Virus record (IMG/VR): IMGVR_UViG_3300038674_000823
Span: 1 to 33,332 of that record
From: a virus
Taxonomy: Duplodnaviria > Caudoviricetes
Strand: one strand, 5' to 3'
DNA: 33,332 nucleotides
Under the pieces are notes generated by a model. The model was not told the DNA's origin, did not search any database, and worked only from the letters and a program-made list of their open reading frames with translations. A program made the translations under genes and the position numbers. This document shows, piece by piece, positions 2,482-31,400 of this stretch. Within the stretch, counting starts at the first letter, position 1. Every line of letters begins with the position of its first letter.

Positions 2482-2695
2482 ATACGAACTCTTTGCCGCC
2501 GTAGGCAAATACACCGCGCAGGACGGCAGGAAACGGACACTGACCCGCAAAGTGGGCGAGGTGTGGACGCACAGCAGCGGCGAACGGTACATCCGCCTGG
2601 ACCCCTATTTCAACTTCGGCGCCGTGGAACGCAAGGCCGGATCGGACCGCATCTTCCTGAAAATGACGAAACCGGAGAACCCGCCGAATGGATAA
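2468..2695 (+). CDS. Hypothetical small beta-rich protein (75 aa), possibly nucleic-acid binding
   Basis: GGAGG RBS before ATG 2468. Sequence VGKYTAQDGRKRTLTRKVGEVW...YIRLD. Confidence 0.65.
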   Translation: MAVIEYELFAAVGKYTAQDGRKRTLTRKVGEVWTHSSGERYIRLDPYFNFGAVERKAGSDRIFLKMTKPENPPNG

Positions 2696-2789
2696 CCTGG
2701 ACAGCGTCGGAGTACTTATTCTTTGGTACTCCCTGTGCTGCTTCATCGGATGGTGGATTGCTGGCATCACGAACAAAGGAGGCACTACC

Positions 2790-3221
2790 GTGCTTGACGA
2801 TATCAGAATAACGCTCACATCCCCGGACCTTCTTCCCGTCCGGGCTCACGAAGGCGACGCCGGCGCCGACCTCAAGGCCGCCGAAGACACCATCATTCCC
2901 CCCGGGGAATACCGCACCATCCCGTCCGGGGTACGGATCGCCGTCCCCTTCCGCCATGTCGGGCTCGTCTTCTCGCGAAGCAGCCTCGCCGTAAAGAATG
3001 GACTTCGGCTGGCCAACTGCGTCGGCGTGATAGACCACGGATACACGGGAGAAATCGGCCTGCCCCTCTACAACGACAGCGACGCCCCCAGGATAGTCCG
3101 CCGGGGGGACAGAGTGGCCCAGCTCGTCCTGCTGCCCGTCGAACTCCCGTCCTTTGACGTGGTGGAAGCCCTCCCCGAAACGAAAAGGGGAACGGGCGGC
3201 TTCGGCAGCACCGGAATATAG
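2790..3221 (+). CDS. dut: Trimeric dUTPase
   Basis: All five motifs: AGADL, RSSLA, GVIDHGYTGEI, RVAQL, RGTGGFGSTG. AAAGGAGG RBS before GTG 2790. An in-frame upstream ATG exists at 2688. Confidence 0.95.
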   Translation: MLDDIRITLTSPDLLPVRAHEGDAGADLKAAEDTIIPPGEYRTIPSGVRIAVPFRHVGLVFSRSSLAVKNGLRLANCVGVIDHGYTGEIGLPLYNDSDAPRIVRRGDRVAQLVLLPVELPSFDVVEALPETKRGTGGFGSTGI

Positions 3222-3260
3222 AGGCCCGTCGACGGAGCGCTGATAAAAGGAGGTGACGCG

Positions 3261-5810
3261 ATGACAGATCTTGCGGCATACAGACGATTCGTAAATGACA
3301 AGCTCACACTGGCGGCACGGAGCGGCGTCCCGTGTGATCCAAAGGACATCAATCCGATCCTCAAACCGCACCAGAGGGACATCGTACAATGGGCCGTCGA
3401 GGGCGGGCAGCGGGCCATATTCGCGTCCTTCGGCCTCGGGAAGACAATGATGCAGCTGGAAATATGCAGGATCCTCCAGGCGAAAACAGGGGGGCGCACC
3501 CTGATCATCCTCCCCCTGGGTGTACGGCAGGAGTTCCGCAGGGACGCCGAAAAACTGGAGATCGACATTGAATTCGTCCGGCGAACCGAGGAAGTGGAGG
3601 CATCCGGGAAAAAACACTTCATGACCAACTACGAAAGCGCCAGGGACGGAAAACTGAACCCAGAGCTCTTCAGAGCTGTTTCCCTGGACGAGGCGTCCGT
3701 GCTCCGGTCCTACGGATCGAAGACCTACCAGGAATTCCTTCCGATCTTCGCCCCGTGCCGGTACAAATTCGTCGCCACGGCCACCCCTGCCCCGAACCGC
3801 TACAAAGAACTCATCCACTACGCCGGCTTCCTGGGAATAATGGATACGGGACAGGCCCTCACCCGTTTTTTCCAGAGGGACAGCACGAAGGCAAACCATT
3901 TAACCCTGTACCCTCACAAAGAAAACGAATTCTGGCTCTGGCTCCATTCATGGGCCATATTTCTTCAGCGCCCTTCCGAGCTCGGGTACTCCGACGAAGG
4001 ATATGACCTGCCGGAGATAAAGGTCTTCTACCACAAAGTCGAACGTGAAGGCGCCCTGCCGGTGGACAGGGACGGCCAGGTCTCCATGTTCTTTGACGCA
4101 TCGCTCGGAGTCAGGGAAGCCGCCAGAGAAAAGCGGGAAAGCATGGCCGCCCGCGTGGCAAAAATGGCAGAAATACTCGAAGGTGATCCTGACAGCCACT
4201 ATATCCTGTGGCACGACCTTGAAGCCGAACGGAACGCCATCAAAAAGGCCGTTCCCGAGGCCGTCGAAGTCTACGGATCGCTCGACCTGGACGAGCGGGA
4301 ACGCCGGATACTGGCCTTCTCGGACGGGCAGGTGAAATACCTGGCCACCAAGCCCGAGATCTCCGGCAGCGGATGCAATTTCCAGAGACATTGCCACAAG
4401 GCTATATTCCTGGGCATAGGCTACAAGTTCAACGACTTCATCCAGTCCATTCACAGGATACACAGATTCCTGCAGGACCATCCGTGCGATATCCATGTCA
4501 TCTACTCGGAATCTGAAGCCGAAGTGCTGCGGATACTGCTCCGGAAATGGGAAGAGCACAAACGGCTCATGGCCAACATGAGCGCGCTGGTGGAACGCTA
4601 TGGACTGAACAGGCTCTCCGTGGACGGGCTGACCCGCGCCATGGGAGTCCGCCGGAAGACAGAGCGGGGCACGCTTTGGCACGTCGCCCTGAACGACTGC
4701 GTCGAAGAAGCGGCGCTGCAGGAAGAAAACTCCGTCGGGCTGGTGGTCACATCCATACCCTTCAGCAACCACTACGAATACACCCCGAACTACTGCGACT
4801 TCGGCCACACAGACGACAACGGCCACTTCTGGCGGCAGATGGACTTCCTCACCCCGGAAATCCTGCGCATACTCCGCCCCGGGCGGCTGGCGTGCATCCA
4901 CGTAAAAGACCGGGTGCTGTTCGGCAGCGTAACCGGAGCGGGAGCGCCGACCATCTCTCCGCTCCATGCCGAAGCCATATTCCACCACATCAAGCACGGA
5001 TTCGACTACATGGGAATGATCACCGTGATAACCGACGTTGTGCGGGAAAACAACCAGACCTACCGGCTCGGATGGAGCGAAAACAGCAAAGATGGAACGA
5101 AAATGGGGGTCGGTTCGCCGGAATACATACTGCTCTTCCGGAAACCACAAACCGACCGGACCCGCGGATATGCCGACGATCCGGTGTGCAAGTCAAAGGA
5201 AGACTACAGCAGGGCGCGGTGGCAGGTAGACGCTCATGCATTCTGGCGCTCATCGGGAAACCGTCTCCTCTCCGCGGAAGAATTCAAAGCCCTTTCCTCC
5301 GGCGAACTGGGAAAGGCCTTCCGGGAAACGTCCAGGGGTCTGATCTATGACTACGGCGAGCACATCTCCCTGGGCGAAGATTTCGAACGGCGGGGCCGTC
5401 TCCCGGCGACCTACATGGCCATAGCTCCCGGGAGCTGGCATGACGACGTGTGGGACGACGTCAACAAAATGCTCACGCTCAACGGCGAACAGACGCACCG
5501 TGGCCTTCAGAACCACATCTGCCCCCTGCAATTTGACCTTGTTGACCGCCTGATAGTCCGCTACAGCAATGAGGATGATCTCGTATACGACCCCTTCGCG
5601 GGGCTGATGACCGTACCCTACAGGGCCATCCTGCTTCGCCGCCGCGGCGGAGGGTCGGAGCTATCGGAAGACTATTTCCGGGACGGCGTCAGATACCTGC
5701 GGATGGCCGAAACGGAGGCGCTTGCTCCCACATTGTTCGACCTGGAAGGCATCGGCCTTCCGTCTGAGCATGCCGGCCTCATGAAAAGGAGTGAAGCAAA
5801 CCATGACTGA
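3261..5810 (+). CDS. SNF2-like helicase fused to a beta-class amino (N4/N6) DNA methyltransferase
   Basis: N-terminal Walker A FGLGKT, DEAS, TATP, GCNFQ, QSIHRIHRF. C-terminal motif IV variant TSIPF, then HICP and motif I DPFAG. AAAGGAGG RBS. Confidence 0.88.
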   Translation: MTDLAAYRRFVNDKLTLAARSGVPCDPKDINPILKPHQRDIVQWAVEGGQRAIFASFGLGKTMMQLEICRILQAKTGGRTLIILPLGVRQEFRRDAEKLEIDIEFVRRTEEVEASGKKHFMTNYESARDGKLNPELFRAVSLDEASVLRSYGSKTYQEFLPIFAPCRYKFVATATPAPNRYKELIHYAGFLGIMDTGQALTRFFQRDSTKANHLTLYPHKENEFWLWLHSWAIFLQRPSELGYSDEGYDLPEIKVFYHKVEREGALPVDRDGQVSMFFDASLGVREAAREKRESMAARVAKMAEILEGDPDSHYILWHDLEAERNAIKKAVPEAVEVYGSLDLDERERRILAFSDGQVKYLATKPEISGSGCNFQRHCHKAIFLGIGYKFNDFIQSIHRIHRFLQDHPCDIHVIYSESEAEVLRILLRKWEEHKRLMANMSALVERYGLNRLSVDGLTRAMGVRRKTERGTLWHVALNDCVEEAALQEENSVGLVVTSIPFSNHYEYTPNYCDFGHTDDNGHFWRQMDFLTPEILRILRPGRLACIHVKDRVLFGSVTGAGAPTISPLHAEAIFHHIKHGFDYMGMITVITDVVRENNQTYRLGWSENSKDGTKMGVGSPEYILLFRKPQTDRTRGYADDPVCKSKEDYSRARWQVDAHAFWRSSGNRLLSAEEFKALSSGELGKAFRETSRGLIYDYGEHISLGEDFERRGRLPATYMAIAPGSWHDDVWDDVNKMLTLNGEQTHRGLQNHICPLQFDLVDRLIVRYSNEDDLVYDPFAGLMTVPYRAILLRRRGGGSELSEDYFRDGVRYLRMAETEALAPTLFDLEGIGLPSEHAGLMKRSEANHD

Positions 5811-5825
5811 TAAGAAGGTGGTGGC

Positions 5826-7286
5826 GTGATGGGTCTTGTCATCGATCTTTTCGCCGGTGGAGGAGGGGCCTCCGAGGGAATCCGAATGGCCCTTGGGCGA
5901 GACCCGGACATAGCGGTGAACCACGATCCTGAGGCCATCGCCATGCACATGGCGAACCACCCCGGGACGAAACACTACGTATGCGATATCCATGACGTTG
6001 ACCCGGCGGAAGCGTGCGGAGGCATTCCGGTAGATTTGCTGTGGGCAAGTCCGGACTGCACCCACCACAGCAAAGCGAAGGGGGGAAAGCCGAGGGACAG
6101 GAAACTTCGCTTCCTCGCCTGGGCTGTGGTGGACTGGGCGAAAAAGGTTCGCCCAGCCGTAATCTGCCTTGAGAACGTGGAAGAGTTTCGGAGCTGGGGC
6201 CCCCTTGATCCCAGCGGGTACCCCATCAAGGCCATGAAGGGGAAGATATTTGATTCCTTCACGACGAGCCTTCGGAATTTGGGATACTCCGTGGACTGGC
6301 GGGAGCTGCGAGCCTGCGATTACGGTGCTCCGACGACGAGGAAGCGGCTCTTCCTCGTCGCCCGTTGCGACGGGCGCCCTATCGTCTGGCCGAAGCCGAC
6401 ACATGGCCCCTGGGGGATTCCATTCCGGACGGCGGCTGACTGTATCGACTGGAGTATTCCCTGTCCCTCGATTTTCGAACGGGAACGGCCGCTGGCGGAC
6501 GCAACACTCCGGCGCATTACCAGGGGGATCGTTAAGTTCGTCCTTCAGAATCCGAGCCCCTTCCTGATCCAGTATCACGGTGAAACAGGCCCCAACCAGG
6601 TACGGGGGCAGAGCATAGACGAACCCCTCATGGTGGTGGATGCATCGCCTCGATACGCGATGATTTCTCCCGTTTTCACCGAACATGCGAACGCCTCGTC
6701 TCCACGGTGCATGCCGGCTGATGAACCCCTCAGGACGATTTGCGCCTCGCACTCCTTGCGAAGCACTACGGCGGCGTCACCGGTGCAAAAATCGATACAC
6801 CCCTTGGTACGGTCACAGGGGTGGACCATCATTCGCTGGTGGCGTGTCATCTCTTGAGGCAATTCGGGACATCTACCGGCTCCCCGATCGAAGCTCCAGT
6901 CGGAACGATTATGCCAGGGGGGGTGTGGCAAGACAGCGCTCGTAAGCGCGTTCCTCTCGAAATACTACGGTGCAGGGATCGGCGAGGAGGTCGAACGTCC
7001 CATAGGCACCGTCACAGGACACGACCGTTTCGGCCTCGTTACCGTGCAGGTGGACGGCGAGACCTGCGCCTTGGCGGACATTGGAATGAGGATGCTGCAG
7101 CCCCGCGAACTCTACCGGGCCCAGGGATTTCCCGAGGAGTATGTGATCGACCTGGATTTCGGAGGGAAACCGTTGACGAAGACAGCCCAGGTTCGCATGG
7201 TCGGAAATTCCGTGTGTCCTCCTGTGGCTGACGCAATTATCCGAGCGAATTTCCACGAGGCAAAGGCGTCCTCCAGGACGGCCTGA
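5826..7286 (+). pseudogene. DNA (cytosine-5) methyltransferase disrupted by two frameshifts
   Basis: Motifs DLFAGGGG, ASPDC, LENV, RKRL in the first frame. The middle segment (LAKHYGG...TIMPGG) is in another frame from about 6747 to 6923. C-terminal RELYRAQGFP and GNSVCPP return to the first frame. Confidence 0.85.
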
Positions 7287-27165: not shown

Positions 27166-28194
27166 ATGGAAGCAACCAGAAGGGTCGATGTGGAGCTGGT
27201 GTATGAAGGGGCGAATATCTCGAGGGATATAGCCCCTTTTTTCGTGGATCTGACCTACACGGACAACGCCCACGGGGAGGACGACGATCTTCAGATTACT
27301 CTGGAGGACAGGGAGGGGAAGTGGCGCGGAAGCTGGTTCCCCGAACGGGGGGCGGCCGTCAGGGCGGCCCTGGTGTCCCGGAACTGGGAGAAGCCCGGCG
27401 CCGCCGTCCGTTTCCCGTGCGGGACGTTCGAGGTGGACGAAATCGAATGCTCGGGCCCCCCGACGGTGGTGAAGATCAAGGCGGTTTCCAGTCCCGTGAA
27501 GGGGGCGCTGAAGCGCGAGCTGGTGACGAAGGCATGGGAGGCGGTGTCGCTTTCCGAAATAGCGTCGGAGCTGGCGGGGAAGCACGGGCTGGCCCTTGTG
27601 TGGGAATCCGGTGAGGACCCGGTGTATGAGCGGAAGGACCAGGTGGAAACGGCGGATCTGGTGTTTTTGAGGGAGCTCTGCGAGGAGGCCGGAGCGGCCC
27701 TGAAGACAACGGATGCTCAGCTGGTGGTGTTTTCAGAGGAGGAATACGAGAAAAAGCCTCCGTCACGGACCATTACGCCCGGAATGGAGCGGCTGTCCGG
27801 GTACAGGCTGAGGGCGAAGACGGCGGGGACCTACAAGGCGGTGAAGGTCCAGTATCATGACGCGGTCCGGGACGAGACCTTTGAGGTGTATACCCCGGAA
27901 GGGAAGCAGATGGGAAAGACGGGTGAAACTCTGGTTGTGAACCGCAAGGTGGACAGTCTCGCTGAAGCGGAGCGCCTGGGGAAGAAGAAGCTGTACGACG
28001 CGAACAAGCGGGAGATGTCGGGCTCATTTTCGCTGATGGGGGACTTTCAGTTTGTCGGCGGTTCCACCGTCAAACTGTCCGGATGGGGGAAGTTCGACGG
28101 CGTGTGGTTTGTGGAGCGGGCGACCCACAAGGTTTCGAGGGGCGGCTACACCACCGACATCGATATCCGCATGGGCGTAAAGGAGGGGTCGTGA
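27166..28194 (+). CDS. Baseplate hub (P2 gpD / late control D family)
   Basis: YTD...E.DDL.I.L.D, G.F.VDEI, Q....D..FL..LC, G.FDG.W......H, GYTT. Confidence 0.92.
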   Translation: MEATRRVDVELVYEGANISRDIAPFFVDLTYTDNAHGEDDDLQITLEDREGKWRGSWFPERGAAVRAALVSRNWEKPGAAVRFPCGTFEVDEIECSGPPTVVKIKAVSSPVKGALKRELVTKAWEAVSLSEIASELAGKHGLALVWESGEDPVYERKDQVETADLVFLRELCEEAGAALKTTDAQLVVFSEEEYEKKPPSRTITPGMERLSGYRLRAKTAGTYKAVKVQYHDAVRDETFEVYTPEGKQMGKTGETLVVNRKVDSLAEAERLGKKKLYDANKREMSGSFSLMGDFQFVGGSTVKLSGWGKFDGVWFVERATHKVSRGGYTTDIDIRMGVKEGS

Positions 28195-28625
28195 TGCCCG
28201 GTGGAGAGTCCGGAGGAGTGCTCCGGTTCGGCTATGTGTCCGACGTCGATCCGGCGCGCAAGATGGCGCGGGTGCGGTTTCCGGATAAAGACGGTCTTGT
28301 TTCCGGGTGGCTTCAGGTGGTGGTGCCGAATACCCTGAAGAATAAGGATGAAGTGAATCTTGACCCAGGGGAGCACGTGGTATGTCTGCTGGCCGGCAAC
28401 GGCATCGAGAGGGGCGTTGTGCTCGGTGCCGTGTGGGACGGGAAGAACACCCCGCCGGTAGGCGATCAGGATGTCCGGGTGACCACCTTCGAGGACGGCA
28501 CAACGGTCCGCGTTGACCGGAAGGGGCATGTGGTGGAGCTGAAAGACCATTTTGGCAGCTATATTCGGTTTGCTGACGGCAATATTTACATTATGGCCGC
28601 GGCAAATGTCTACATCAACGAGTGA
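28194..28625 (+). CDS. Baseplate spike (gpV-like)
   Basis: G.VS.VD....ARV.F.D....SGWL, GE.V.CL...NG...G.VLG, F.DG....DR. AAGGAGG RBS. Confidence 0.9.
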   Translation: MPGGESGGVLRFGYVSDVDPARKMARVRFPDKDGLVSGWLQVVVPNTLKNKDEVNLDPGEHVVCLLAGNGIERGVVLGAVWDGKNTPPVGDQDVRVTTFEDGTTVRVDRKGHVVELKDHFGSYIRFADGNIYIMAAANVYINE

Positions 28626-28634
28626 GGTGATTGT

Positions 28635-28916
28635 ATGCCTCCGGCTACGCGACTCGGCGACATCTGCACGGGGCACGGGTGATGGCCGCCCCGCCCTTCG
28701 GCGGAGGGCAGCCCGAATGTTTTTGTGAACGGTATTCCGTGGCACCGCCAGGGAGACGGCTGGGAGCCGCACTGCTGCGACGGCTGCCATGCTTCGGTAT
28801 TGGCGTCCGGCAGCGGAACCGTGTTTGTGAACGGCAGGCAGGCGGGCCGAATCGGTGATCCGGTGGCCTGCGGTTCATCGGTAGCTACCGGGTCTCCGGA
28901 TGTTTTTTGCGGATAG
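28635..28916 (+). CDS. PAAR spike-tip protein (T4 gp5.4-like) with an in-frame TGA at codon 16 (candidate selenocysteine)
   Basis: MPPATRLGDICTGHG*WPPRPSAEGSPNVFVNGIPWHRQGDGWEPHCCDGCHASVLASGSGTVFVNGRQAGRIGDPVACGSSVATGSPDVFCG. Three PAAR repeats, GAGGTG RBS, directly after the spike gene. The ORF track shows only the fragment after the TGA. Confidence 0.88.
28693..28709 (+). promoter_or_regulatory. Candidate bacterial SECIS hairpin
   Basis: GCCCTTC-GGC-GGAGGGC stem-loop starting 10 nt after the TGA. The apical loop starts with GG, 17 nt after the TGA. Confidence 0.5.
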
Positions 28917-28928
28917 GGGGTGAGGGGT

Positions 28929-29336
28929 GTGATCGGGATTCTGGGCGGCGTGATGTTTGAATCGTCGACGGGGGACGGTCCCCTGGGCGTGCGGGTGAGG
29001 ACGTACGAGAATCTGCAGCGGTCAAAGGGGGCGAAGTATGCGGCCCATGAGGTTCATGGCCGAAAACCACTCTTGGAGTTCACCGGCCTCGACGGGGACA
29101 CGATTTCCCTGTCCATGCAACTCAACGCGTCGCTTGGAATCAGCCCGTCCGAAACGATCAGCGAGCTTACGGCCATTCTGGAGGGAGGCGCCGCGGTGCC
29201 CCTGATTTTCGGAGGGGCGCCTCTGGGGTTGTTTGTCCTTGAGGGGATTTCGGAAGCCTGGGGCGTGGTGGAAAGCGAGGGGCGCCTGGTGTCGGCGACG
29301 GTCACGGCGCAGTTGAGGGAGTATCCCGATGGCTAG
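28929..29336 (+). CDS. Tail tube initiator (P2 gpU-like)
   Basis: IG.LG...F, A.HE..G.KP.LEF.G, L.EY end. Start at 28920 or 28929. Confidence 0.88.
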   Translation: MIGILGGVMFESSTGDGPLGVRVRTYENLQRSKGAKYAAHEVHGRKPLLEFTGLDGDTISLSMQLNASLGISPSETISELTAILEGGAAVPLIFGGAPLGLFVLEGISEAWGVVESEGRLVSATVTAQLREYPDG

Positions 29337-29643
29337 GGAGCTGGTCATTTTAGGCGGCGCGGGGGACGTGGATTTTTCTCCGGTCGGGGTTGCTGCGGAG
29401 GTGGCGCAGAATGTCCGGACCATCCTGAGTACTCCCGTATGGTCGGTGCCCCTGGACCGGTCGTTCGGTCTGAATGCCGAAATGCTCGACAGACCGACTC
29501 CGTCAGCCATAGCGGCGTTGACGTCGGAGATCTACCTGGCGCTGAGGCGCTGGGAGCCGCGGGCCAGGCTGAAAAACATTTCGTTCGACGGTGACGCGGA
29601 CGGGCGCCTCGTGCCGAAAGTGAGGATTGAGGTTGATGAGTGA
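29329..29643 (+). CDS. Baseplate wedge protein (gpW/gp25 family)
   Basis: QNVRTILST...SVPLDR.FG, D.P, WEPRA. Confidence 0.9.
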   Translation: MARELVILGGAGDVDFSPVGVAAEVAQNVRTILSTPVWSVPLDRSFGLNAEMLDRPTPSAIAALTSEIYLALRRWEPRARLKNISFDGDADGRLVPKVRIEVDE

Positions 29644-30763
29644 TCTTTTTGCCGGCCTGCCGGACGTGCTTTTTGCCGTCAAGGATGCAGCCGAGGTGGA
29701 ACGGGAAATCATCCGCGCTTTCGAGAGGGCGTCGGGCCGGTCTTTGGCTCCCGGCGACCCGGTCCGCCTGTTTTTGCTGACCGTGGCGTCCGTGGTGATT
29801 CAGCAGCGGGCCCTGATCGACTTCACGGGAAAGCAAAATCTGCTGGCGTATGCCTCCAGGGATTATCTGGACCACCTCGGGGCGCTGCTGGGGGTCTACA
29901 GGCTGCCGTCTGCGCCGGCCATGACGACGCTCCGGTTTACGCTTTCGGCCCCCCAGCCCGGGGCCGTGGTGATCCCTGCGGGCACCAGGGTGACGCCCGG
30001 CGGCGGAGATCTGTATTTTGCAACCCGCGAGGCGGTATCAGTGCCGCCGGGGGACCTGTCGGCCGATTCGCCGGCAGCGTGTCAGACGGTAGGCGGAATC
30101 GGGAACGGTTTTTTGCCCGGGCAGGTGGCGAAGCTCGTGGATCCCCTGCCGTGGGTGAGAGGAGTGGAGAATGTCACCGAAACGGCGGGGGGTGCGGATC
30201 CTGAAAGCGACGACAGCCTGCGGGAACGGATTCGAATGGCGCCGGAGCGATTTTCGGTGGCCGGCCCTTCAGGTGCCTATGCGTTCTGGGCGCGCACAGC
30301 CCACCAATCCATCGTGGATGTGTCGGTGATATCGCCCGCTCCGGGAGAGGTGCATATTTACCCGTTGGCGGCGGGGGGAGAGCTTCCTTCCCAGGAGGTC
30401 CTGGATGCCGTGTACGAGACGTGCAACGCCGAGGACGTCCGGCCGCTGACCGACCACCTGACGGTCTTGCCTCCGGTGGCGGTGGAGTATGAAGTGCATG
30501 TGACGTGGTGGCTTTCAAACGCGCGGGCGGCTGAGGCTTCGGCAATCGAGGCTTCCGTTGAGCGGGCTGTGACCGGCTGGATTGATTGGCAGCGGGGGGC
30601 ACTGGGCAGGGATATTAATCCGTCGGAGCTCGTGGCCAGAGTGGTGGGGGCCGGAGCTAAGCGGGTTGAGGTGGCAAGCCCCTCTTTTACGGCTCTTGTC
30701 CCTTCTGAAGTTGCGCTGCCCGTGTCGGTGGATGTGATTTTTGGAGGGATGGAGGATGCGTAG
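29636..30763 (+). CDS. Baseplate J protein
   Basis: L.PGDP.R, QNLL.YA...LD.LG, GGAD.E.D..LRER, SVAGP..AY, RPLTD. Confidence 0.95.
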   Translation: MSDLFAGLPDVLFAVKDAAEVEREIIRAFERASGRSLAPGDPVRLFLLTVASVVIQQRALIDFTGKQNLLAYASRDYLDHLGALLGVYRLPSAPAMTTLRFTLSAPQPGAVVIPAGTRVTPGGGDLYFATREAVSVPPGDLSADSPAACQTVGGIGNGFLPGQVAKLVDPLPWVRGVENVTETAGGADPESDDSLRERIRMAPERFSVAGPSGAYAFWARTAHQSIVDVSVISPAPGEVHIYPLAAGGELPSQEVLDAVYETCNAEDVRPLTDHLTVLPPVAVEYEVHVTWWLSNARAAEASAIEASVERAVTGWIDWQRGALGRDINPSELVARVVGAGAKRVEVASPSFTALVPSEVALPVSVDVIFGGMEDA

Positions 30764-31400
30764 GCTTGAAGACGTTTCTCTTGGAGACATTCTGCCTCCG
30801 TCTCTCTCGGCGGATTCCGGCGTCATGGCCGCAGCGGGGGCCATCGACGGGGAACTTTCCGAGGCGGGTGCGCTCATCCGGGAGGCCCTGATCGTCTCGC
30901 GCATCGACGAACTGCCGGAGGTGCTGCTTGACCTGTTGGCCTGGCAGTGGCACGTGGATTTTTACCCGCCCGGAATTCCGGCGGCGACAAAGCGGAATTT
31001 GGTCACGTCGTCCATTCCCTGGCACCGCAAAAAGGGGACGCTCTGGGCCGTCAAGCGGCTTTGTGAGGATGTGTTCGGCCGGGCCGAGGTTTCGGAGTGG
31101 TTTGAATATGGAGGGGACCCCTTTCGTTTCCGCGTGGCGACGGAGGGGAGGTTGACGGGGGAAGAGTCCTGGCGGCTCTTTTTTCAGTCCCTTGACCTTG
31201 CGAAGAACGTGCGCAGCCATCTGGACGAGGTGACGATCCTCAGGCCGTTAACGATCGGGATACGCCATTCCGGACCGCTGTGCACCAGGGGGGCGGTCTC
31301 GATTGCGCCGGCACCTCCGGCAGGGGCGTCCATTGTTGCCCGCCGGGGAATAGGCCATAGCCGGAGGGGTTTTATGACGCTTTTCACGAAAGGAGGTTGA
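30756..31400 (+). CDS. Tail protein I (P2 gpI-like)
   Basis: ID.LPE..LD.LAWQWHVD, HR.KGT..AV, EWFEYGG.P..F, KN.RS.L. Confidence 0.93.
   Translation: MRRLEDVSLGDILPPSLSADSGVMAAAGAIDGELSEAGALIREALIVSRIDELPEVLLDLLAWQWHVDFYPPGIPAATKRNLVTSSIPWHRKKGTLWAVKRLCEDVFGRAEVSEWFEYGGDPFRFRVATEGRLTGEESWRLFFQSLDLAKNVRSHLDEVTILRPLTIGIRHSGPLCTRGAVSIAPAPPAGASIVARRGIGHSRRGFMTLFTKGG

Follow-up and report, generated by a model that had tools for sequence, protein, structure and literature searches.

Whether an in-frame UGA in the gene for a phage spike tip marks a broken gene or a selenocysteine codon is the question raised by this locus. The window, which is a whole virus record of 33,332 nt, encodes a phage with a lambda-like head and a P2-type contractile tail, and its PAAR gene lies within a baseplate operon in the order gpD, gpV, PAAR, gpU, gp25, J, I and tail fibre (Pfam). 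The PAAR gene (28635..28916; this and all features below are on the + strand) has its ATG at 28635, 93 sense codons with one in-frame TGA among them, and a TAG ending at 28916, and is preceded by the Shine-Dalgarno-like sequence GAGGTGA (28624..28630), which overlaps the stop of the gpV spike gene. The TGA is codon 16 (28680..28682) in the context C-T-G-H-G-*-W-P-P-R (the asterisk denotes the TGA), where it aligns with a nearly invariant Cys, and is predicted to encode selenocysteine (Sec). An otherwise intact gene with a putative ribosome-binding site, as described in the first-pass annotation, is seen directly in the DNA.

The gpV-type central spike gene upstream is listed as the ORF 28083..28625 (its true start is probably further inside) and matches PF04717 weakly (E 9.6e-05, just under the cut-off), while the P2-like baseplate genes gpU, gp25/W, J and I follow downstream (28920..31400; Pfam). 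On inspection of its sequence, gpV contains no HxH at the C-terminus; according to the accessible text of PMC12407873, absence of this motif from a T4- or P2-type spike implies a separate tip protein, which is therefore expected here as well. The 93-aa product obtained when codon 16 is read through is identified by profile and fold as a gp5.4-like PAAR spike tip, as it matches PF05488 (E 6.5e-19, Pfam profile search) and is also assigned to phrog_281. Among the 30 GenBank phage matches listed, identity does not exceed 68%. Its AlphaFold model, in which residue 16 was entered as Cys, has a pLDDT of 97.9 and the three-hairpin cone fold, sharing this fold (Foldseek TM 0.87-0.93) with T4 gp5.4 (4KU0), P1 UpfC (9VYI), V. 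cholerae VCA0105 (4JIV), E. coli c1882 (4JIW) and 9F4B. The T6SS PAAR equivalog NF033420 was rejected, as the product scores 83.4 bits against a cut-off of 124 and the genomic context is a phage tail.

As in known PAAR tips (PF05488), the gene adjoins a spike gene and the protein is predicted to hold a metal site of three histidines and one cysteine. The predicted ligands H14 (28674..28676), H46 (28770-72), H52 (28788-90) and C79 (28869-71), which had been proposed earlier, are invariant in 43 aligned homologs; the metal site of T4 gp5.4 comprises three His and one Cys in the accessible text of PMC12407873, and zinc is described in a T6SS PAAR in that of PMC10715212. Residue 16 is not among the ligands of this predicted set. 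Unlike known PAAR tips, the window protein adds two tip Cys pairs, 16/48 and 47/51, with UGA in place of Cys16, while the solved homologs 4JIV, 9VYI and 4JIW have Gly at position 16 in the alignment.

The UGA is genuine and has been retained in several lineages. It is identical in spanning contigs of runs X2, X4, X6, X8, X9, X10 and X13, which represent seven studies and were compared as assembled contigs, not raw reads, X2 possibly being the same source as the window; the contigs of these runs differ at neighbouring sites while the TGA stays constant. The Cys/UGA pairing suspected earlier also holds in diverged homologs. Codon 16 is Cys in 69, TGA in four, Ser in six and Ala in one of 80 viral homologs found by protein, and one further homolog of this set has TGA at C48; altogether, TGA at codon 16 occurs in 23 distinct phage or prophage contexts, against an estimated 600 or so Cys copies. 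A DNA pattern for the TGA form hit real PAAR genes in 11/11 viral, 5/13 genome and 15/28 metagenome matches, the remainder being chance matches without PAAR similarity. With TRR allowed at codon 16, the viral scan gave 13 matches, namely 11 TGA (all PAAR) and two TGG (non-PAAR), and thus contained no TGG, TAA or TAG counterpart of the PAAR gene at this codon.

Internal stops in 188 unique PAAR sequences all fall at Cys columns 16, 48 or 51. A PAAR gene is carried by 54 of 268 Synergistota genomes, where the ten TGA matches have one TGA each, at position 16 (6), 48 (1) or 51 (3); 301 genomes of another phylum gave a single match, with TGA at position 48. In the PAAR gene L358 (G948:C1:1314684-1314953), whose UGA at 48 likewise comes from a phylum other than Synergistota, a G-loop hairpin of 6 bp lies at a spacing of 29. 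Apart from the gene in bin G005, the Pseudomonadota sample held 16 PAAR matches, all free of stops but too few to carry much weight. The PAAR family does show ordinary decay, as a Synergistota copy (L322, G108:C55) in a bin without selA is cut by TAA after about 30 codons.

The protein segment after the UGA is under purifying selection, with dN/dS against the window of 0.047-0.26 in 8 of 15 pairs and saturated synonymous sites in the other seven; even homologs as distant as about 47-60% identity, saturated at synonymous sites, retain the UGA. A reassigned UGA (code 4 or 25 type) was rejected, as UGA is an ordinary stop elsewhere in the window: ORFs under code 11 already cover 96% of it, and TGA terminates 50 of its 86 long frames, gpV included. 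The jumbo-phage stretches that were read (60 of 275 kb, 40 of 284 kb and 20 of 357 kb, together with tRNA regions) showed, like the window, neither genome-wide UGA recoding nor a tRNA(UCA). Recurrence, low dN/dS and the use of UGA as a stop elsewhere therefore reject error, decay and a changed genetic code. Two ways of producing a protein without decoding the UGA were also rejected. The ATG overlapping TGA-TGG opens an alternative frame of 3 to 318 codons among 16 relatives, which is not conserved, while a restart at GTG 28725 would lose H14, the histidine needed for spike binding in T4 gp5.4 according to the accessible text of PMC12407873. A protein tree built from 217 rows and 96 columns, with UGA entered as Cys, is too poorly resolved for counting origins, and the Fisher p-values consequently overstate independence; a single origin of UGA16 is possible from the sequences.

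A SECIS-like hairpin, GCCCUUC-GGC-GGAGGGC (28693..28709), identified by folding and by comparison with relatives, starts 10 nt 3' of the UGA and presents its loop 17 nt 3' of it, just where it had first been pointed out. It can be drawn in a window register of 7 bp with a GGC loop at 28700-28702, or in a family register of 5 bp (28695-28699 with 28704-28708) with a 4-nt loop (28700-28703). Bacterial SECIS (bSECIS) elements are characterized by a loop of 3-9 nt, a stem of 4-16 bp, G in the first two loop positions, a spacing of 16-37 nt and an MFE of at most -7.5, as given in the accessible text of PMC13188914. With a loop of 3, a stem of 7, G first (GG), a spacing of 17 and -9.5 kcal/mol, the window hairpin agrees with all of these values, which were applied by our own script, not by bSECISearch. 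The suggestion of a SECIS element thus stands as regards the model, but not as regards stability, as four folds gave z-scores of -0.01 to -1.68 against shuffles, i.e. within chance, and the significance of the hairpin therefore derives from comparison with relatives only. A lower stem (CGGGUG/CAGCCCG) over the UGA, also part of the first-pass annotation, is absent from the 61-nt fold centroid and from the family consensus. Nothing near the gathering score was found by Rfam over 28400-29200. The 3' arm of the hairpin holds GGAGG (28703-28707), 9 nt before an out-of-frame ATG (28717-28728) which opens three codons only; this arrangement is probably due to chance.

The hairpin accompanies the UGA form, with the spacing of the selD and grdB SECIS elements of the hosts. 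A 5-bp stem pairing nt 16-20 with 25-29 (U of UGA = 1) is complete in 16/21 UGA but only 1/144 Cys contexts, and in one of the seven Cys homologs whose residues fit [PS]-S-x-[EGQ]-G; the full stem is absent from the closest Cys homolog (L001, 88% identity). When the best G-loop stem under a bSECIS-like rule is considered, it lies at a spacing of 17-18 in 19/23 UGA contexts compared with 1/182 Cys contexts, so that the hairpin is far from equally present in Cys homologs. The four codon-16 contexts failing this spacing test are L083, L125, L091 and L096, the last of which has the stem, but another hairpin scored higher. Isolated stems at or below -7.5 kcal/mol are found in only 10/23 codon-16 contexts. 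UGAs at 48 and 51 have their own hairpin at or below -7.5 in five of nine cases, while no strong hairpin was found at the other-site UGAs of the remaining four (L271, L275, L304 and L318).

No pair is broken in an RNAalifold consensus of 16 stem-bearing sequences (alignment A2), which were picked for having the stem, so that the percentage paired is circular. The 18-27 pair alternates between C-G, U-G and U-A at synonymous sites; of the five core pairs, a single one shows changes in both partners. The selD SECIS elements in the Fretibacterium and Pyramidobacter bins (G002 and G004) have a spacing of 17 and a GGA/GGC loop, and the grdB SECIS has a spacing of 18 at four of four S-T-U-G sites.

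The window phage is likely a phage of anaerobic bacteria. Of 268 Synergistota genomes, 40 match its head-tail DNA, as does a Bacillota-labelled bin, and even the closest prophage DNA (G001, G044 and G028) is, at 65-77% identity, too distant for a host assignment. Genomes that carry UGA-PAAR genes have Sec machinery. selA is present in 9/9 Synergistota carriers compared with 27/45 genomes with other PAAR forms (one-sided p 0.018, for genomes that are not independent and bins that are incomplete, most Cys-form hosts also having selA). In total it is found in 12 of 13 genomes that carry UGA-PAAR genes related to that of the window phage: the nine Synergistota, G001, G003 and G948, the exception being G005. 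All five related-prophage carriers tested have selA. G001 and G003 contain selA, selB and tRNA-Sec(UCA), although no selD above cut-off was found in G001, while G948, from another phylum, contains selA and a TGA-containing, Sec-type selD. Synergistetes are described as selenoprotein-rich in the accessible text of PMC9312934.

Bin G005 (L104, L285; Porticoccaceae) has no selA, selB, selD or tRNA-Sec above cut-off. Its UGA-PAAR contig is probably mis-binned, as it is only 3.8 kb long and a Sec-type grdB fragment with SECIS occurs in the same bin. The phage contig of G001 may likewise be mis-binned, since the gene was found in G001 only within a 301-genome sample of its class.

The tip-loop cysteines C47, C48 and C51 (28773..28787) suggest a role for residue 16. 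Among 208 of 217 proteins that could be parsed, residues 16 and 48 are both Cys or UGA in 197, neither in seven and discordant in four, while residues 47 and 51 are both Cys or UGA in 136, neither in 71 and discordant in one; residue 16 is independent of residue 47. This co-variation, together with the independence of 16 and 47, favours a pair of independent disulfides over a single metal site made of four cysteines, with C48 as the predicted partner of residue 16 and C51 as that of C47. All 31 parsed UGA sites stand opposite a Cys partner, and phages with two UGAs have one in each Cys pair. Residues 15-16 and 48-50 fall between strand segments of the AlphaFold model, and the predicted Sec16-Cys48 bond would be situated at the needle point.

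Several jumbo phages carry variants of this arrangement. The low-GC records L083 (G272, a 275-kb phage), L113, L125 and L128 have PAAR genes with two UGAs, at 16 and 51, where a strong hairpin is found at the second UGA only (spacing 20) and shows paired changes between L083 and L125. In the 284-kb phage G274, the PAAR gene (L275) has UGA at 48 and Trp replacing the conserved Gly13; the same phage encodes a tRNA with a CUA anticodon (L340:2408-2501), designated tRNA-Pyl by ARAGORN, which may be an amber suppressor. The jumbo-phage PAAR genes L271 and L276 have UGA at 48 without a good hairpin and an N-terminus before H14 that is apparently out of frame, and are possibly a decaying copy.

The selenoprotein interpretation of the first-pass annotation is supported by these results, and those of its refuting tests that could be applied failed to refute it. 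We consider it probable that host SelB inserts selenocysteine into the tip protein, likely forming a Se-S bridge, which would make this protein a virion selenoprotein. Under this scheme, SelB would bind the G-loop hairpin 17 nt 3' of the UGA and, together with tRNA-Sec, would place Sec at residue 16; the protein would then fold round its 3-His/1-Cys metal site and cap the gpV trimer. At the needle point, a Sec16-Cys48 selenenyl-sulfide would staple hairpins 1 and 2, replacing the disulfide predicted for Cys homologs. From general selenium chemistry, a Se-S bond would likely form more readily and better resist reduction in anaerobic habitats. As each virion has one tip, inefficient Sec insertion would suffice. 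We lean, by a narrow measure, towards the broader view that phages of Sec-using anaerobes turned spike-tip cysteines into Sec several times independently, at three positions each with its own SECIS, thereby building Se-S staples.

The evidence also bears on three other accounts of the UGA. In a programmed leaky read-through, a near-cognate Cys or Trp tRNA would misread the UGA with help from the downstream stem, throttling output without any selenium. One tip copy per virion would tolerate a low rate, some UGAs (codon 16 of the two-UGA jumbo phages among them) have no SECIS-like hairpin, and insertion of Cys would equally account for UGAs in Cys columns. A throttle could, however, use Trp codons or UAG/UAA, yet UGA is found at Cys columns only, and Trp never stands in place of Cys16 in the PAAR matches. 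This account also leaves unexplained that the hairpin shares its spacing and G loop with the selD and grdB SECIS of hosts and that the carriers are Sec-using genomes, while neither general UGA recoding nor a tRNA with UCA anticodon occurs in the window or the jumbo-phage stretches examined, and we consider it unlikely. A selenium-gated switch, which is compatible with Sec insertion, differs in what is selected: the UGA would mostly terminate, and the tip would be present or absent according to host selenium, regulation itself being the selected trait. T4 without gp5.4 still assembles and plates at a fitness cost of about 1.55 per cycle (accessible text of PMC12407873), and the related Synergistota prophages L354 (G028:C38) and L356 (G033:C21) lack a PAAR gene between gpV and gpU. 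That T4 can do without its tip, and that these two prophages have none, keeps such a regulatory reading alive and also means that low-efficiency decoding would be enough. A switch, though, needs no particular residue, whereas the UGAs fall only on the paired tip cysteines, always opposite a Cys, and none is found at the metal ligand C79 or elsewhere in unbiased sets, so that this reading appears very improbable.

That the UGA is a mere nonsense change in a dispensable gene, or a sequencing error, is hardly credible, even though a single change turns TGY into TGA and the gene, which T4 can spare, is absent from some relatives and cut by TAA in G108. The same codon recurs in contigs from seven studies, the UGA persists at low dN/dS in homologs of only about 47-60% identity whose synonymous sites are saturated, TGG, TAA and TAG counterparts are lacking, and the hairpin is associated with the UGA form. 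The first-pass annotation had kept decay or error open partly on account of another broken gene in the window; no such gene was found by tblastn with related-prophage ORFs, codon 16 being the only clear in-gene stop at a homologous residue in this non-exhaustive scan, in which most other rows were off-frame.

As a predicted selenoprotein, the PAAR tip resembles SelD and GrdB of the likely hosts, in which UGA likewise aligns with Cys, Cys homologs abound, a G-loop hairpin follows at 17-18 nt and the genomes contain selA. The prototype bacterial selenoprotein is E. coli FdhF, with an in-ORF SECIS read by SelB. Known prokaryotic selenoproteins are, to our knowledge, almost all cellular and mostly redox-related; unlike known bacterial selenoproteins, the tip belongs to the phage structure and is neither an enzyme nor a transporter, and its predicted role is a structural bridge rather than catalysis. 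Among eukaryotic viruses, the poxvirus glutathione peroxidase homologs are selenoproteins, being host-derived enzymes with a eukaryotic 3'-UTR SECIS. The tip gene likewise would borrow the Sec machinery of the host, but differs from them in encoding part of a bacteriophage virion and in having a bacterial in-ORF SECIS.

No PAAR, tail or phage family is included in Table 1 of a 2026 compilation of 119 prokaryotic selenoprotein families, in the accessible text of PMC13188914. PAAR and phage are absent from the accessible main text and supplements of deep-Sep (PMC12013277) and BSepDB (PMC13326102), PAAR is absent from the accessible text of Haft and Gwadz (10.1101/2022.07.06.499078), and NCBIfam 20.0 has no seleno-PAAR model. 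A literature search whose coverage left out most subscription journals returned no report of a PAAR or phage-virion selenoprotein. If the broader view of repeated Cys-to-Sec conversion is correct, PAAR would be the first bacteriophage virion selenoprotein family, and selection would have favoured Sec for a bond that is structural and not catalytic. Sec in a tip present once per virion would bring the 21st amino acid into phage structural biology and make the phage dependent on the recoding machinery of its host. With Cys and Sec forms occurring naturally in a protein of 93 residues whose homologs have solved structures, the family bears on why Sec is kept over Cys outside catalysis. In prophages of anaerobes, UGA tip genes readily escape notice or are annotated as pseudogenes.

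Some minor observations concern the prophages and the remainder of the window. The gpV proteins of the G028 and G033 prophages have a proline-rich extension at the end, which might replace the tip. The 33-kb record contains no tRNA gene, and no sel gene was found among its 34 scanned ORFs. Window positions 2688-6857 encode a dUTPase and two DNA methyltransferases, one of the N6/N4 type (849 aa) and the other of the C5 type (343 aa), the latter aligning with no more than the N-terminal half of its Pfam model.
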